Source: a bacterium
Lineage (GTDB): Bacteria; Patescibacteriota; Minisyncoccia; UBA6257; JAGOQP01
Reading direction: 5' to 3'
DNA: 64,000 nt
NCBI GenBank assembly: GCA_021814695.1
Contig: JAKAHY010000003.1
Coordinates: 20,692 to 84,691 of the forward strand
The notes beneath the pieces are model-generated. The model saw only the letters and a program-made list of their open reading frames with translations, did not search any database and was not told the DNA's origin. Every line of letters begins with the position of its first letter. Position 1 is the stretch's first letter. Below, in pieces: positions 10,268 through 57,070 of this stretch. The position numbers and the translations under genes were made by a program.

Positions 10268-10597
10268 TTGCACATGGAATACAATAACATTACAACGGTA
10301 CTTGAGTTGCCGGGTAAAAAAATAGTTAAAAACTTCGGTTTAGTGAAGGGGATTACGGTGAGGTCAAGGTCAATTTTCGGAACGCTCGGGGGCGCGCTAC
10401 ATACTCTTGTCGGCGGAAATATTACTTTATTCACCAATCTGTGCGAAAAAACACGCCAGGAGTCTTTTGAGCTGATGGTTAAACACGCGGAGGAAATGGG
10501 AGCCAATGCGATTGTCGGAGTGCGTTACGACGCTAATGACGTTATGTCGGGAGTAACCGAAGTGCTTTGTTACGGAACGGCAGTTTTGGTTGAGTAA
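10268..10597 (+). CDS. YbjQ / UPF0145 (DUF74) family protein
   Basis: SIFGTLGGA...ESFELMVKHAEEMGANAIVGVRYD...GTAVLV matches the YbjQ family pattern. Confidence 0.75.
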   Translation: MHMEYNNITTVLELPGKKIVKNFGLVKGITVRSRSIFGTLGGALHTLVGGNITLFTNLCEKTRQESFELMVKHAEEMGANAIVGVRYDANDVMSGVTEVLCYGTAVLVE

Positions 10598-24313: not shown

Positions 24314-24704
24314 TTCCGGCCTCCTTTTGAAGTTCTAAACTGTTTAAAGTATAGCATAAAATTAAGATTTGTCAATAAGGTGTGATTAATTACTATTAAC
24401 TGTTTACTATTAACTGATTACTTGTTATCATTCAATTACAACTTAATAGAAGTTATCAAGAGTGGCGGGGAGGGAATTGGCCCCATGATCCGCCCAGCAA
24501 CTTGTCTTAGGTCTCGACGCTTAGGATAAAGTGCTAAATCCAATCCCCGAAGGCGTACTCGTCCTGAGCTCGCCGAAGGAGAGAGATAAGGTAGGTCGAT
24601 TTTTAATGCCTTTAAACTCTTTCCTTCTCGGGAGAGAGTTTTTCTTTGCCTCGTCGAAGCTTTAGCGAAGGCGGGTATTTATTATCCTTTCGGGCAATGG
24701 CTGT

Positions 24705-47540: not shown

Positions 47541-47720
47541 ATGAAGAACAAATTTGAAGGAATTTTTGAAATAATTGCGGCACTTATAGTTCTGTTTTCT
47601 TCGATGTGGGATCCGAAAATTTCGATTGTTTTGTCAGTCTCCGCACTGATTATTTTTGGTGTCATTAAATTATTGACCGGCGAAAAAAATAAAAAGTCGC
47701 AGCCGGAAATTAATAACTAA
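47541..47720 (+). CDS. Possible small membrane protein (59 aa), below the ORF-track cutoff
   Basis: Hydrophobic ORF after a TATAAT-like box. The annotated antisense ORF 47477..47665 looks less plausible. Confidence 0.3.
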   Translation: MKNKFEGIFEIIAALIVLFSSMWDPKISIVLSVSALIIFGVIKLLTGEKNKKSQPEINN

Positions 47721-50181: not shown

Positions 50182-50209
50182 TTGACAAATATATTCATTA
50201 TGCTATAAT
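50182..50209 (+). promoter_or_regulatory. Consensus sigma70 promoter TTGACA-16-TATAAT
   Basis: Direct reading. Confidence 0.7.
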
Positions 50210-50216
50210 GCACTCG

Positions 50217-50993
50217 TATTGAAAATCAAATAAAAGGAGGGAGGTGAGTGGAGGCGCAAAAAAGCGCCAGCGTCCGAAACAACAACCGCTACTCGTCGAC
50301 CGCTAACCGACATCGTGTCGGTTCTCAGGGCCCGGACCGAAATCTTGCCCGTGGCCAGAGCCGATTATGACTACTGACCAATTGGTCAGAGTCAATCATG
50401 GCTTTTGGCCCAAGGCGGGGATTTGCGGCAAAGGGGTCCCGAACGCGGTAGTAAAGTCCATGGAGGGCACAATGCTTTAGACTAAGGCCTAAGGCCCAAT
50501 CCGACGACAGACGATCCGCCGAGCCTCCAAGCGCGCAAGGGGTGCGCGCTACTACATAAATGACCCCACGGAAAAAAACGTGAGCGGAGGAAAACACCGG
50601 ACCACCATCTGGCACAGAGTAAAGGACTCTGGATAGCCGGCAAACCGCCGCGCCCCAAGTTAAGACGACGAAGCGGCACAGGGGCGTGGCACGAGAGACG
50701 ACGGAGGAGCCACGAATGCATACACTCCGTAGACTCAACTCATAGAGGGATGAAGCGGCGCCTCTATGAGTAGCTGTCCGAACCCGGGAACGACAGGTTT
50801 CCCAGGGCGTGACGCCGCCGGTTAGGGAGAAGACGGAGCGCTCTCCCGCGTAAAAAATGCTCCAAAAGTACTTTGTGCCCCGGGGATAAATGGGCCAAAC
50901 CCTGGGTGGAACAGGCCTCGTAAGCGCGACCGCGTAAGTGTCCCGCAACCGGGAGCGTCCAGCAAGCAGTACGGACGCTCCTTTTTCTTTTTT
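50217..50993 (+). ncRNA. Candidate large structured ncRNA (~770 nt, ~62% GC) bounded by a consensus promoter and an intrinsic terminator (GGAGCGTCC…GGACGCTCC plus T-run). Identity unresolved
   Basis: Sharp GC jump relative to the flanks. Many internal stems, e.g. CUCAUAGAGG…CCUCUAUGAG. All + strand frames are closed (the track shows no + strand ORF of 60 aa or more). The only long ORF (50325..50948, minus) is antisense to the promoter and terminator and is composition-driven. Confidence 0.55.
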
Positions 50994-54556: not shown

Positions 54557-55588
54557 CTATTGAGTGCTGGATGGGCTGCTTGTCGAGTAATCCGAACGAT
54601 AAGTGCTGAATCCGTTCCATAAAGCCCATCCGGTACATCCGGCATCGGTGCAGGCTCTTATTTGAGCATCTATATCCTGCGGAGTGTAATCCATAAGTTT
54701 CCAGGGAGAAATAGATTCAATGTTGAATGCCTGAATCCACGAACGCAGGCTCGCTATTCTTTTCGGGTCGTCTTTTACTTTTGCCCAACCGGCAGTAAGA
54801 GCTTGAAACACGGTTTGATAAGGTTCGGTTCCCGGATGTTTTATCCCGAAAGTTCCCAGAGCCCAATGCGATGGGTAGGGCATCGGCATTATATAATCAA
54901 AATTCTGGGCAGCGTCTTCCAGGCTTTGGCCGATTCCGGCTTCGGGATTGATAAATGTTGTTCCGAAAATATCGGCCGAAATGGGAAATCCATATTTTTG
55001 CCTTACTTCTTTATTAAGAAACTCAAAGAAAGCCTGAATCGTGGGACGTCTTTGTTCGATGGGGGTTTGGCTTTGAGCTTCGGTCGGACCGCCGTAACGG
55101 ACATAGTCGTAATTGATTTCGTCAAAACCCAAATCGTAAGCGGATTTTGAAGTAGTGGCTATCTGGTCCCAACGCTCTCTGGAAGCCGGATCATACCAGG
55201 ATTTTTCTCCGTTTTTGAAAGCCACAATTCTGCCTATGAGATAAATGTTTTTATCGTGCAATCCCGACAGAATTCCTTTTACCTTTTCGTTATTTATGTC
55301 AAAAAGTCCGGATCCGTCGGAACGGACATCTATTACGAGCGAATTGAATTCATTCTTCTCCAAATTCGATATAACCTCCTGTAATTTTTTAGGGGATTCA
55401 AAGGAGTAGAAGGTAACATACAAAGCTTTGACTACGGCCGGCGTTGCAATATGAATAACCTTAATTTCTTTTACGACCGGTTGTTCTGTCGGGGTGGTTG
55501 CCGAAAGATTAATGGTATTGTGAACAGTAAAAAAAGCCGTTCCGGCCAGAATGAAAACCGCGGCAATTGTGGCATATAACTTAAACAT
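54557..55588 (-). CDS. Secreted putative glycoside hydrolase-like TIM-barrel protein (GHL/DUF4015-like)
   Basis: Signal/TM. Weak family resemblance only. Confidence 0.45.
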   Translation of the reverse strand: MFKLYATIAAVFILAGTAFFTVHNTINLSATTPTEQPVVKEIKVIHIATPAVVKALYVTFYSFESPKKLQEVISNLEKNEFNSLVIDVRSDGSGLFDINNEKVKGILSGLHDKNIYLIGRIVAFKNGEKSWYDPASRERWDQIATTSKSAYDLGFDEINYDYVRYGGPTEAQSQTPIEQRRPTIQAFFEFLNKEVRQKYGFPISADIFGTTFINPEAGIGQSLEDAAQNFDYIMPMPYPSHWALGTFGIKHPGTEPYQTVFQALTAGWAKVKDDPKRIASLRSWIQAFNIESISPWKLMDYTPQDIDAQIRACTDAGCTGWALWNGFSTYRSDYSTSSPSSTQ

Positions 55589-55794
55589 GCTTTAGATAGA
55601 TATTACCACGTGTTTTTTACTTTACAAACCCCACACCTTTTCTCAGCTCGAGCGAAGCTCGAAAAAAAACAAAGTTTTATAATTTGTTTACCAATAAACT
55701 TTATTTGGCAGTCATCAAAAACAGAGGATTTATGATATTGGCTTAGATAAGGTGCGGGGTAAACCCCCCGCGCAAAAAGTGATATAATACAATT

Positions 55795-55962
55795 ATGGAA
55801 AAAAGGACGTGTAAAAAATGTCACGGTCCGGCCGACGAATATATTTGCGAAAGATGCGGCCACGTGATGAAAGATTGCGACCCCAAGCACGAATGCGGAA
55901 TGGAGAATTGCCATCCTCGCTGTACCCAGTGCGGAAAGTCGGAAGAAAATTGCTCGTGCTAA
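55795..55962 (+). CDS. 55-aa Cys-rich protein (12 Cys; CxxC…CxxC…C…C…C…CxxC…CxC), apparently leaderless
   Basis: Extended -10 TGaTATAAT (55780-55788), ATG 7 nt downstream. Below the ORF-track cutoff. Frame verified by hand. Confidence 0.45.
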   Translation: MEKRTCKKCHGPADEYICERCGHVMKDCDPKHECGMENCHPRCTQCGKSEENCSC

Positions 55963-56023
55963 GTAGTCGTATTGTGTCCGCTTAATGGCGGGCAGGGTTT
56001 ATTTTTGCCTTTTAAATTAATAT

Positions 56024-57070
56024 ATGAAAAATAAAGAATTGTTCATATCCTCTGAAGGAGAAACGAAAAAGGGCCCAAAGGAATATTTAGTGGATGAAAT
56101 TATGGCCGATAACGGAGTTTTTGACGACAGCTCTTACGATCTGGTAGTAAAATTTGCCAATGGCCAAAAACTTAATCCGGAAAGAACGGAAAAGGCCAGG
56201 GCAATAATTAGCGAATGGTGGCTTAACAAGTATGGATTTCCATTTGAACTAAAAACGGAGAGAGAAGAGGTATTGAGAAGAAAATACGGCCCCAGCAAGG
56301 AAATGCGCGATTCGGTTTTATTACAAGAGGAGTTGCTTAACGCCATAAAAGAACAGGATAAGGATAAGATTCAGAAATTAAAAATAAAGTACACAAAAGA
56401 ATTCCCCGATCAGTTGGAAGGCGTTGAGGTTCTTTTTGCCTTGCCTGAACTTCTTAAAAAAACCAAAAGTTTTAACAATCATGAAAAAGGAGTGAAATAC
56501 ACTCCCGAAACTTTCAGGGATTTATGTGAAAGCCAATTTCTTGTTACGCATTTTATTTTACTAAACAGTGGCGACAAACCGTTTCTGAGTCAGTTTTGGC
56601 AGGTTATGGAATTTATCGCCGAAAGAGACGGAACCAAACACGAACTCAACATAATAAGAAGAGGCATTGTAAGCCAGGTTTCGGTTGACCTGATTCTCAA
56701 GGAGTTGGGGATGGCTCCACAACTTTCTCATCCAAGAGAGGACGCTTTTGAAAAGACCGATATGTGGATTGAAAATAAAACCCGGGTTCAGGTTAAGGGA
56801 AGTGAATATATTTCGGAGCCGGCCATAATCAGTACGGATGAAGTGGTTTTTCCCGGAGTAGTCACAAAAGAACCCAATCAAGAGACTTATTTTAATTCCA
56901 AATTTTCCTATGAAACGGCACAATTTAGGGCAAAAATAAAAAAAATAAATCCCAAATCAGAGGGAATATTCTTTGTGATCCCGACTCATATGATAGATTT
57001 CGTTACCGGCCAGCCGGACGAAAAGCTTGTGGATTTTTTCAGGAAAAAAATGGAAGAAAGAAAAAAATAA
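56024..57070 (+). CDS. Hypothetical protein (348 aa)
   Basis: ORF only. Confidence 0.5.
   Translation: MKNKELFISSEGETKKGPKEYLVDEIMADNGVFDDSSYDLVVKFANGQKLNPERTEKARAIISEWWLNKYGFPFELKTEREEVLRRKYGPSKEMRDSVLLQEELLNAIKEQDKDKIQKLKIKYTKEFPDQLEGVEVLFALPELLKKTKSFNNHEKGVKYTPETFRDLCESQFLVTHFILLNSGDKPFLSQFWQVMEFIAERDGTKHELNIIRRGIVSQVSVDLILKELGMAPQLSHPREDAFEKTDMWIENKTRVQVKGSEYISEPAIISTDEVVFPGVVTKEPNQETYFNSKFSYETAQFRAKIKKINPKSEGIFFVIPTHMIDFVTGQPDEKLVDFFRKKMEERKK

Follow-up and report, generated by a model that had tools for sequence, protein, structure and literature searches.

The window analysed here, a 64-kb stretch of a patescibacterial contig, carries on its forward strand a short gene encoding a 55-residue protein (MEKRTCKKCHGPADEYICERCGHVMKDCDPKHECGMENCHPRCTQCGKSEENCSC, the exact translation), which is preceded by a GC-rich palindrome and an extended -10 element and followed by a terminator-like hairpin (Table 1). 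The peptide contains 11 cysteines (C6, 9, 18, 21, 28, 34, 39, 43, 46, 53 and 55), rather than the 12 counted in the first-pass annotation, together with four histidines; the three CxxC pairs noticed at that stage are all found in the translation, along with a C-terminal CxC. Its Cys content (20%) compares with 9.8% for the next highest ORF and a mean of 2.3% among the 133 ATG-initiated ORFs of 40-80 aa found in the six frames of the whole window. Since the peptide is hydrophilic (GRAVY -1.13) and has neither a hydrophobic N-terminus nor a signal peptide, it is probably a cytosolic protein.

Table 1. Features of the small gene and its surroundings, in window coordinates (L numbers denote genomic loci of the protein family).
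Feature	Position	Strand	Details and basis
CDS of the 55-aa Cys11His4 mini-protein	55795..55962	+	ATG at 55795, stop TAA (55960-55962) included; homologues, syntenic orthologue, family alignment, AF2 pLDDT 90.5
Codons of C6-C21, CxxC-x8-CxxC knuckle pair, predicted metal site 1	55810..55857	+	zinc-ribbon/rubredoxin type
Codons of C28-C55	55876..55959	+	C/H28-x3-H32-x-C34-x4-C39-x3-C43-x2-C46-x6-C53-x-C55; eight ligand-capable residues
Extended -10, TGaTATAAT	55780..55788	+	sequence; layout kept in L011, L015 and L009
GC-rich perfect palindrome, GCGGGG-TAAACC-CCCCGC (GCGGGGTAAACCCCCCGC)	55754..55771	+	lies across the promoter's -35 region
Terminator-like hairpin and T-rich tract	55975..56006	+	8-bp stem, 5 GC pairs, loop TAAT; consensus match

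A gene missed by annotation and its predicted transcription layout

The gene is uncalled in every NCBI, ENA or Logan contig with identical DNA (including two NCBI MAGs), no called gene was matched in an exact-sequence look-up of the 55-aa peptide, and at least one relative has been annotated with a truncated start. The lack of a call in all these annotations, and the fact that chance alone often yields ORFs of 55 codons, are what can be said for a chance ORF, or for a non-coding region in which the promoter and hairpins serve, for example, a small RNA. Such a reading is nevertheless extremely improbable, because the frame and its Cys/His scaffold are kept in at least 256 homologous protein clusters, an intact orthologue persists at a syntenic locus whose identity has fallen to about 68%, the alternative frames of the forward strand contain stops in the window and/or in L011, the sole antisense frame that stays open shows no sequence conservation, and Rfam gives no match at E<=1 in 55580-56030. 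Homology and synteny thus settle the coding status of the 55-codon ORF, and the suspicion that a genuine small Cys-rich protein gene had been overlooked proves well founded: 55795-55962 is shown to be a real, conserved protein-coding gene skipped by annotation pipelines.

The syntenic arrangement, in which a 56-aa family member lies between a DUF4015 gene on the minus strand and genes for a 365-aa protein, MGMT, Alr and DnaG, is found in L011, L012 and L013. At L011, the flanking proteins are 65-70% identical to those of the window and the small protein only 44%, and the 56-aa ORF, whose loss or frameshift in a relative conserving the flanking genes had been proposed as grounds for refutation, is intact and keeps every scaffold Cys and His (the comparison is with one relative, the lineage of the window being sparsely sampled). 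For the 348-aa protein encoded downstream, a scan of genome contigs gave no relative and a metagenome scan returned only the known locus.

The first-pass annotation had placed an extended -10 element just upstream of the ATG and proposed a leaderless gene. The element is indeed there, with a spacer of 6 nt (ACAATT) between hexamer and ATG, so that the ATG begins at the seventh base past the hexamer, too close for a Shine-Dalgarno (SD) site to fit between the two. Its position in the DNA sequence predicts a leaderless mRNA beginning at, or adjoining, the A of the ATG. This layout is credible, since the same geometry recurs: TGnTATAAT-N6/7-ATG is also found ahead of ORFs (100-186 aa) at 10274, 39216, 39808, 45252, 51035 and 54007, TATAAT-N6/7-ATG stands ahead of many long ORFs in the window, and a TGnTATAAT-N6-ATG start is kept in the syntenic orthologue as well as in two further members of the family. 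As a family trait, a leaderless start was rejected, TAWAAT being found 4-9 nt before the ATG in only four of 40 GTDB loci; SD-like motifs occur at ten of these 40. The leaderless layout characterises this genome rather than the mini-protein family.

The GC hairpin described ahead of the promoter is likewise present. Together with its flanking bases, the palindrome forms an 8-bp stem (55752-55773; dG -16.6 kcal/mol, z -3.3), and it occurs once in the window, against a chance expectation of 0.01. It may be an operator, or be without function. Two more specific roles were tried and rejected, that of an intrinsic terminator, because no T-run follows the stem on either strand, and that of a conserved operator, because the palindrome is unique in the window and missing at the orthologous locus L011. 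CsoR operators are of the form CCCC-N-GGGG, and the palindrome is of the opposite form, GGGG-N-CCCC. On the other side of the gene, a terminator-like hairpin that had gone unmentioned (stem-loop at 55975-55994; dG about -16 kcal/mol, z -2.3) separates it from the next gene, which starts with an ATG at 56024. With its extended -10, putative leaderless mRNA and own 3' hairpin, the small gene appears to be a stand-alone unit in this genome.

The family, its scaffold and its predicted metal ligands

Homologues escape a word-indexed search with the single peptide, which returned no matches, and an exhaustive phmmer search was required to find them. Against 1.84 billion representatives, phmmer gave six matches of 56-77 aa (E 2e-8 to 5e-4), and profile searches extended these to 15, then to at least 256, protein clusters at 90% identity, all of 45-96 aa. 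P0005 and P0006 (713 and 780 aa), also matched by phmmer, were set aside as repeat proteins whose resemblance is confined to a CxxC...YxCxxCG module. Identity between the window protein and family members, of which the mainstream sequence MSCKKCGGETEGYKCDMCGAEAKEHDANHTCGGDHCMPKCKACSQAETKCSC is an example, lies at 32-49%; every named member is annotated as 'hypothetical', and Pfam and NCBIfam both lack a family model matching either the window protein or mainstream members. Altogether, 43 genomic loci were found, 31 of them labelled Patescibacteria and the others Limnocylindria, Actinomycetota, Omnitrophica or DPANN archaea, which shows that the family is concentrated in Patescibacteria/CPR, with scattered copies in the other four groups. 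Plasmid and phage collections contain no family match, and a mobile-element origin was rejected on this ground.

Members of the family, for which a length of 52-70 aa served as the yardstick, share the scaffold CxxC-x8-CxxC-x10-H-x-C-x4-C-x3-CxxC-x6-CxC, which becomes CxxC-x8-CxxC-x6-[H/C]-x3-H-x-C-x3-[H]-C-x3-CxxC-x6-CxC when the His variants are written in, that is, ten conserved Cys and one to three His in about 53 aa (a broader alignment being too diverse for a pattern scan, a tighter subset was used). The window protein carries all ten scaffold Cys and H32 and departs from the scaffold at the two semi-conserved His positions, where H28 is replaced by Cys and H38 by Asn. In an alignment of 66 sequences, C6, C9, C18, H32, C43 and C53 are invariant, C21 and C55 are each present in 65, C46 in 64, C39 in 62, and C34 in 60, with His taking its place in five. 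Position 28 is His in 56 sequences and Cys in the window protein alone, and 63 of the 66 have at least one His or Cys at positions 28 and 38. These exchanges between Cys and His, at C34, at H28 and in alternation between 28 and 38, look like the signature of metal ligands. By prediction, the eight ligand-capable residues from C28 to C55 supply two metal sites, or a single cluster, beyond the site expected of the N-terminal knuckle pair, so that the model would accommodate about three metal ions per 55 residues. The predicted division of ligands is C6, C9, C18 and C21 for one site, H32, C34 and C39 with either C/H28 or H38 for another, and C43, C46, C53 and C55 for the third. At some 13 Cys/His ligands per roughly 53 residues, this would be among the densest predicted metal-site arrangements in folded bacterial proteins.

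Conservation extends beyond the ligands. Seven other positions (G15, K17, G22, E24, G35, K42 and A49) show conservation of at least 90%, and the EGYKCD, CGGEHC, MPKC and EAE segments are unusually well conserved across phyla in their non-ligand residues, a pattern that would suit a protein with a specific partner better than a simple metal sponge. Family members are acidic (median net charge -3, thiolates uncounted). That the gene is real and that its product is a metal-binding mini-protein of the Cys10His(1-3) family is, in our view, very probable.

Predicted fold, gene neighbourhood and known small metal proteins

AF2 models both the window protein and a mainstream member confidently (pLDDT 90.5 and 95.4, respectively), with strands in the former at residues 4-5, 12-18 and 24-25. 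Foldseek finds no whole-fold match in the PDB, where no solved relative of the family was found either, and the N-terminal half alone resembles a rubredoxin-type zinc ribbon, superposing locally on the rubredoxin domain of LapB (2.0-2.1 A over 30 columns, query TM 0.44-0.45, E >1). The Pfam/NCBIfam zinc-ribbon matches, including Zn_ribbon_LapB, are all under cut-off, and the weak matches from Foldseek and HMM searches are confined to zinc-ribbon, rubredoxin or RING-type domains. A sequence profile run against the PDB gave only C2H2/Zn-ribbon matches, none of them significant. Taken as sub-threshold indications from models and profiles, these results favour the earlier zinc-ribbon proposal for the N-terminal CxxC-x8-CxxC. 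It should be kept in mind that AlphaFold cannot show whether a predicted Cys4 pocket truly holds metal (PMC11241148).

Across the family, the small gene is usually monocistronic and its neighbours vary. A conserved operon partner was looked for and rejected, the largest neighbour cluster (ABC-type ATPases) being present at only six of 47 loci, and no modifying enzyme, protease or exporter recurs among 224 neighbouring proteins. The most frequent Pfam family among these 224 neighbours within 2 kb is Multicopper oxidase, and copper-efflux or copper-oxidase genes lie within 4 kb of the small gene at eight of about 47 loci, in at least three lineages. CueO-like oxidases adjoin it in L029 (with a 50-nt gap), L033, L039 and L047; ATPases scoring above the cut-off of TIGR01511 (copper-translocating P-type ATPase) are found in L033, L051, L052 and L056, and ATPase genes or fragments also in L047 and L019. 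The last of these, from an Acidimicrobiia MAG, has YbjQ_1, a CsoR-family repressor, CopZ (HMA) and an ATPase 0.7-2.3 kb away, and is the only locus with a CsoR-family gene near a family member. Since five of the eight copper loci belong to related Paceibacteria-type genomes (the L029, L033, L039, L047, L051, L052 group), there may have been as few as three independent association events. Other loci have SOD/VKOR/HtrA, HtrA/MsrA, DsbA or OsmC neighbours, and four further family contexts contain no metal genes. Within the 64-kb window there is no copper or zinc gene and, by tblastn, no SmtB- or CsoR-like gene.

Several known small proteins invite comparison. Like the BmtA/SmtA metallothioneins (PF02069), the window protein is about 55 aa long, apparently cytosolic and furnished with about ten Cys plus His and aromatics; in both, part of the chain adopts (here by prediction) a defined zinc-finger-type fold rather than being floppy, and some family members, like some bmtA genes, adjoin metal-efflux ATPases. 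SmtA binds four Zn in one cluster. The two nevertheless differ in their Cys/His spacing, in the lack of a linked SmtB/ArsR sensor here, and in that the genes linked to the mini-protein family, where present, concern copper and not zinc. PF02069 has no match at E<=1 to the window protein or to seven mainstream members, and phmmer with an approximate SmtA query found no family member at E<=10. A metallothionein-like nature, one of the first-pass options, is plausible, with no sequence relationship to this known family and only a partial link to copper genes. Bacterial metallothionein genes are themselves often missed by annotation, being so short (PMC3323870).

By definition (PMC11241148), the window protein belongs to the C(P)XCG class, a motif class and not a homology family, with CERCG and CTQCG plus CKKCHG, i.e., two CxxCG and one CxxCxG; in mainstream members the CxxCG count is two to three. 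The C(P)XCG zinc-finger micro-proteins (Haloferax HVO_2753 and HVO_0758; DUF1610) are likewise shorter than 70 aa and built on CxxCG knuckles, and they too lack significant structural homologues in Foldseek (PMC11241148). Alignment of the family with them is weak, N-terminal, limited to about 20 residues and not significant (6ydh, DUF1610, E 0.024 over 19 residues; 9fhl, HVO_2753-like, E 5). They also lack the H-x-C-x4-C-x3-CxxC-x6-CxC half of the present family, and bind zero or one Zn (PMC11241148), as opposed to the about three sites predicted here. With rubredoxin-type zinc ribbons (the LapB C-terminal domain, desulforedoxin-like knuckles), the family shares two CxxCG knuckles, predicted here to lie on a beta-hairpin; the match to LapB-type domains covers half of the protein at E >1, however, and the mini-protein is free-standing and not part of a larger protein.

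On the copper side, CopZ/Atx1 chaperones and Cu(I) metallothioneins such as mycobacterial MymT are small cytosolic copper proteins. The mini-protein would resemble them as a small, probably cytosolic CxxC protein encoded at some loci beside copper P1B-ATPases, but it has neither the ferredoxin-like HMA fold nor the MxCxxC motif of CopZ/Atx1, a true CopZ is also present at L019, and most family members are encoded away from cop genes. Because tblastn finds no CopZ in the CPR cop loci L033, L051, L052 and L056, it is conceivable that the mini-protein is a stand-in for CopZ there.

What the mini-protein may do

The reading that we prefer, to which as a whole we give a probability of about 0.45, is that of an unannotated cytosolic mini-protein with three Zn/Cu-thiolate sites that buffers metal or hands it over. 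Mechanistically, (i) the N-terminal knuckle pair would form a site of the rubredoxin-type zinc-ribbon kind, (ii) the remaining eight ligand-capable residues would supply either two additional tetrahedral sites or one small cluster, (iii) the metal bound would be a soft one, Cu(I) or Zn(II), and (iv) the mini-protein would serve in the cytosol to buffer metal or pass it on, like a metallothionein or a metallochaperone. A soft-metal role is suggested because copper-export P1B-ATPases, CueO-like oxidases and, once, a CsoR-CopZ pair are the only recurrent neighbours of the family. The restriction of the copper link to eight of about 47 loci, and the lack of a metal sensor linked to the window gene, speak against this reading, as do the four contexts free of metal genes, the absence of copper or zinc genes from the window and the well-conserved non-ligand residues.

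Several small archaeal and bacterial zinc-finger proteins act as adaptors or regulators, and the same metals, probably Zn, might merely hold the fold together, leaving a conserved acidic surface to bind a partner or regulate an enzyme or complex, with no part in metal homeostasis. A structural adaptor of this kind is a strong rival, though less likely than the metal-handling role. It would account for the high conservation of non-ligand positions among distant phyla, for a rigid and confidently predicted AF2 fold and for the absence of metal genes near most loci, and the closest weak matches are the zinc ribbons of Spt4, Nop10, LapB and archaeal ribosome-associated small proteins. It leaves the copper-gene neighbours unexplained, however; no conserved neighbour or fused domain suggests a partner, the acidic character of the protein runs contrary to nucleic-acid binding, and the lineage of the window diverges faster than its flanks (44% vs. 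65-70%) while swapping ligands, which would be unusual for a tightly co-evolving interface.

A redox protein, either a rubredoxin-like Fe(Cys)4 electron carrier or a zinc-thiolate switch or sacrificial thiol buffer against oxidative stress, is improbable. Although the two N-terminal knuckles follow the rubredoxin CxxCG pattern, they are separated by eight residues, as in zinc ribbons, and not by the roughly 29 of rubredoxins; and although rubredoxins and rubrerythrin are among the best whole-chain Foldseek matches (all at E >1), no reductase or oxidase partner shows conserved linkage. Some loci do lie near genes for Fe/Mn-SOD, VKOR, DsbA-like thioredoxin, MsrA, MsrB, OsmC or a sulfide-quinone-reductase-like flavoprotein, but such neighbours vary by locus and each is seen only once or twice. 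Far less likely still is the Cys-rich secreted peptide precursor contemplated in the first-pass annotation, whether as a bacteriocin, a RiPP precursor or other modified peptide, or a disulfide-rich toxin, a reading that has small size and high Cys content in its favour and nothing else. Against it stand the hydrophilic sequence devoid of any signal peptide or hydrophobic segment, a single scaffold conserved over the full length with no split into leader and core, the covariation of His with Cys at ligand positions, the lack of recurrent modifying enzymes, proteases or exporters nearby, and the empty searches of plasmid and phage collections.

Small proteins are systematically lost from annotation, and the gene described here is an instance of this. 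The family to which it belongs is large, comprising at least 256 clusters (90% identity), conserved over phyla and even domains, widespread and uncharacterised, and it lacks a name, a Pfam/NCBIfam model and any solved or similar structure. How CPR bacteria handle metals is poorly understood, and our literature searches found no paper on metallothionein in CPR, nor any on leaderless genes in Patescibacteria. The broadest reading of the metal-handling proposal, which we hold only tentatively and consider less likely than the proposal itself, is that the family represents an unrecognised class of prokaryotic metallothionein, or copper/zinc-handling mini-protein, with a three-metal fold of its own, which might stand in for CopZ/BmtA in ultra-small host-dependent lineages (CPR and some DPANN) and be exchanged horizontally among groundwater and sediment organisms. 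If the copper/zinc-handling reading were true, the family would constitute a new kind of metallothionein or chaperone among prokaryotes, as well as a compact scaffold of interest for metalloprotein design; if the protein were a structural adaptor instead, it would be among the most widespread CPR-specific micro-proteins. Under either reading, a length of 55 residues makes the mini-protein directly testable through synthesis.

A short cysteine-rich gene and its start

With a cysteine content of 20%, the small ORF on the forward strand lies far outside chance composition, the next-highest value among the 133 short ATG-initiated ORFs in the six frames of the window being 9.8% and the mean 2.3%. 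The first-pass annotation had counted 12 cysteines where the product contains 11, together with four histidines, but the ORF itself, its extended -10 element and the GC hairpin upstream read in the sequence as it described them. No gene is called here on identical DNA in two NCBI MAGs, one ENA contig and three Logan contigs. Six small homologues (56-77 aa, E 2e-8 to 5e-4) came out when 1.84 billion representative proteins were searched exhaustively with phmmer, and profile searches yielded 15 and then 256 clusters, all of 45-96 aa and free of Pfam domains. Those with names are all 'hypothetical', apart from one label, 'RecJ-like', that is plainly spurious.

At 44% identity the closest homologue is P0001, encoded at a locus, L011, where the gene order of the window recurs: DUF4015 (on the reverse strand), the small ORF, a 365-aa unknown protein, MGMT, alanine racemase and DnaG. 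Flanking proteins are 65-70% identical between the two, and the ORF is unchanged in frame and nearly so in length (56 vs 55 aa), with all scaffold cysteines and histidines in place. The first-pass annotation had proposed to look for an intact ORF in relatives that conserve the flanking genes; in the window's own lineage a single syntenic relative was found, and in it the ORF is intact. The alternative forward frames contain stops in the window, in L011 or in both, and the sequence of the single antisense frame that is open shows no conservation between them. A non-coding region in place of the gene is essentially excluded, since frame and scaffold are kept in L011 and the region has no Rfam match. 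Judged from its sequence, the small ORF is a genuine gene, and we put at roughly 0.9 the probability that it encodes a metal-binding mini-protein of this family. The protein encoded downstream (67% identical between window and L011) belongs to no Pfam or NCBIfam family and, since a pattern scan of 185,579 GTDB species genomes found no relatives, appears lineage-restricted.

The gap between the -10 element and the ATG is too short to hold a ribosome-binding site. The same geometry (TGnTATAAT or TATAAT, then 6-7 nt, then ATG) is found 5' of ORFs of 100-186 aa at 10274, 39216, 39808, 45252, 51035 and 54007, among others, and by this recurrence is a normal gene start in the window's genome, where leaderless mRNAs appear to be a common expression mode, many genes lying 6-7 nt past TATAAT, often as TGnTATAAT. 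The ATG at 47541 is also placed in this way. The L011 orthologue has TGtTATAAT-N6-ATG, and the geometry is kept in L015 as well. In L009 the same TGtTATAAT-N6-ATG lies 30 nt 5' of the called start of P0017 (45 aa), which shows that this database protein was called from an internal ATG of a 55-aa family member (MDEQNCKKCGMKCEGYKC...) and that family members have been mis-started as well as missed. As a trait of the whole family the leaderless start was rejected, since it occurs at only 4 of 40 GTDB loci, with SD-like motifs at 10 of 40. The GC palindrome overlaps the -35 region, occurs once in the window, has no T-run beside it on either strand and no counterpart in L011; a lineage-specific operator is one possibility, a lack of any function the other.

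Features of the window and of loci carrying family members
Feature	Coordinates	Strand	Details
Small gene CDS	55795-55962	+	ATG 55795, stop TAA 55960-55962; product MEKRTCKKCHGPADEYICERCGHVMKDCDPKHECGMENCHPRCTQCGKSEENCSC
Extended -10	55780-55788	+	TGaTATAAT; 6 bases before small-gene ATG
GC palindrome	55754-55771		GCGGGGTAAACCCCCCGC; 8-bp stem, dG -16.6 kcal/mol, z -3.3
Terminator-like hairpin, T-rich tail	55975-56006		3' of small-gene stop codon
Downstream gene, window	56024-57070	+	348 aa
Downstream gene, L011	6291-7388		365 aa
49-aa ORF	23106	+	MNEIKVANAILPEELNLADDDNCCPAWSGPISESPDKPIRDECCDDDDD; two CC pairs, acidic tail; among the most Cys-rich short ORFs of the window, after the small gene
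SAM-I riboswitch (RF00162)	24450-24592	+	49.2 bits vs gathering score 44.4
Candidate non-coding RNA	50183-50990	+	gene-free, ~770 nt
Full-length P0017 gene, L009	5971-6138		= L046 4001-4165
Retroelement, L007	2362-3733		bAvd and RVT_1 reverse transcriptase
Region with Andersenbacteria paralogue, L056	3238-4165		
Region with Andersenbacteria paralogue, L057	3276-4156		
Gmad2-domain protein gene, L063/L064	4124-4801		

Elsewhere in the window, a gene-free gap has a GC content of 0.51-0.59 (0.415 for the whole window), a promoter of its own (TTGACA-N17-TGcTATAAT) and a terminator made up of a hairpin and a T-run. Its RNA (MFE -311 kcal/mol, z -4.6 vs 20 shuffles) gives no Rfam match, whether at the gathering threshold or at E<=1, and the gap has no equivalent in L011; we regard it as a candidate large structured non-coding RNA.

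Family scaffold and predicted metal sites

We aligned 66 distinct sequences, consisting of database proteins and translations of 43 loci from GTDB species genomes. Numbered on the window protein, C6, C9, C18, H32, C43 and C53 are invariant, C21 (65/66), C34 (60/66, with His in 5), C39 (62/66), C46 (64/66) and C55 (65/66) are nearly so, and position 16 is aromatic. Histidine occupies position 28 in 56 sequences and position 38 in 53, and 63 of the 66 have His or Cys at one or both; the window protein, alone in having Cys at 28 and with Asn at 38, is by alignment a divergent family member. Such interchange of Cys and His at fixed columns is a classical signature of metal ligands. One Andersenbacteria MAG has two paralogous small genes, whose products both have His in place of C34 and each of which is directly preceded by a ~240-aa gene ending in a SHOCT domain.

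By the depositors' own labels, 31 of the 43 loci are of Patescibacteria type (Parcubacteria lineages, Saccharibacteria, Berkelbacteria), the others being Limnocylindria (3), Aenigmatarchaeota (2, one truncated), Gammaproteobacteria (2) and, once each, Acidimicrobiia, Actinomycetes, Omnitrophica, Bryobacterales (a degenerate copy) and an unclassified 'bacterium'. These counts are lower bounds, owing to a scan with two exact peptide patterns only; plasmid and phage collections gave no match. The Bryobacterales copy has lost several scaffold cysteines and one Aenigmatarchaeota copy (L060) stops after H32, and both are probably decaying pseudogenes outside the main host range.

Confident AlphaFold2 models of the window protein (pLDDT 90.5, 18 sequences) and of a mainstream member (95.4, 105 sequences) have a common secondary-structure pattern. 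Metal-filled and empty Cys4 pockets are indistinguishable to AlphaFold (PMC11241148). Neither model has a Foldseek match below E ~1, and the weak matches are, without exception, to metal-knuckle domains. Locally, the best superpositions cover only the N-terminal ~30 residues, one being on the rubredoxin-type domain of LapB (2.0 A, query TM 0.45, E not below ~1) and the other on a small archaeal ribosome-associated zinc-ribbon protein. Zinc-ribbon matches among Pfam, NCBIfam and PDB-sequence profiles are all sub-threshold and to the first ~22 residues. The zinc ribbon originally suggested survives as a resemblance of the N-terminal half, by sub-threshold matches. By motif logic, C6, C9, C18 and C21 are predicted to form a rubredoxin-type zinc ribbon, and C28, H32, C34, C39, C43, C46, C53 and C55 either two further sites or one cluster.

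Genomic neighbourhood and likely role

At family loci the small gene typically has intergenic spacers on both sides and its neighbours vary, with no partner gene conserved across the family and copper as the only recurrent theme. Among 224 neighbours within 2 kb, the Pfam families that occur most often are multicopper oxidase domains. In L029 (where it is 50 nt upstream on the same strand), L033, L039 and L047 (where the end of an ATPase lies at the contig edge), a CueO-like oxidase adjoins the small gene. P1B-ATPases above the cut-off of TIGR01511 (copper-translocating P-type ATPase) are less than 4 kb away in L033 (in the order ATPase, DUF6629, small gene, HXXEE protein, oxidase), L051, L052 and L056, and in L019, from an Acidimicrobiia MAG, YbjQ_1, a CsoR-family repressor, CopZ and a copper ATPase are found at 0.7-2.3 kb. 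Eight of ~47 loci are copper-linked, in at least three unrelated lineages, five of the eight being from related genomes; chance proximity would concern ~1-2% of genes (one cop locus in a ~1-Mb genome), which is our estimate and not a computed control. Oxidative or envelope-stress genes (SOD/VKOR/HtrA, HtrA/MsrA, DsbA-like, OsmC) are neighbours at other loci. Against the copper link, four further contexts show no metal genes and the window has no copper gene. Elsewhere, in L007, the gene for family member P0004 has a diversity-generating retroelement and a HicAB pair a few kb upstream, and just upstream of the gene for family member P0078 is a Gmad2-domain protein gene, whose product has a Cys-rich C-terminus and carries PF27854 'Heavy_Cys_CGP' in precomputed annotation.

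The role that we consider likeliest for the window protein, tentatively and at slightly less than even odds, is to buffer Cu(I)/Zn(II) in the cytosol or to hand it over, in a metallothionein-like or chaperone-like manner, because of its ligand density, the Cys/His plasticity at positions 28, 34 and 38, the speed at which non-ligand residues have diverged in the window lineage and the copper neighbours. Across phyla, non-ligand residues are strongly conserved, which speaks for the main rival, a purely structural zinc-finger adaptor with a putative partner, a reading that we consider possible but rather unlikely. A redox role is improbable, and the secreted peptide (or RiPP) entertained by the first-pass annotation is essentially excluded.

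As for known families, the window protein is like BmtA/SmtA-type metallothioneins in size, ligand types and a predicted, partly zinc-finger fold (PMC3323870) but falls outside them, with no PF02069 or SmtA similarity, and by its motifs it can be classed with the C(P)XCG micro-proteins (PMC11241148) but is not homologous to the characterised ones, while its N-terminal half has with rubredoxin-type zinc ribbons a likeness of resemblance only. This partial likeness without membership makes its family a new, putatively metal-binding one of a known kind, that of small proteins with several metal sites.
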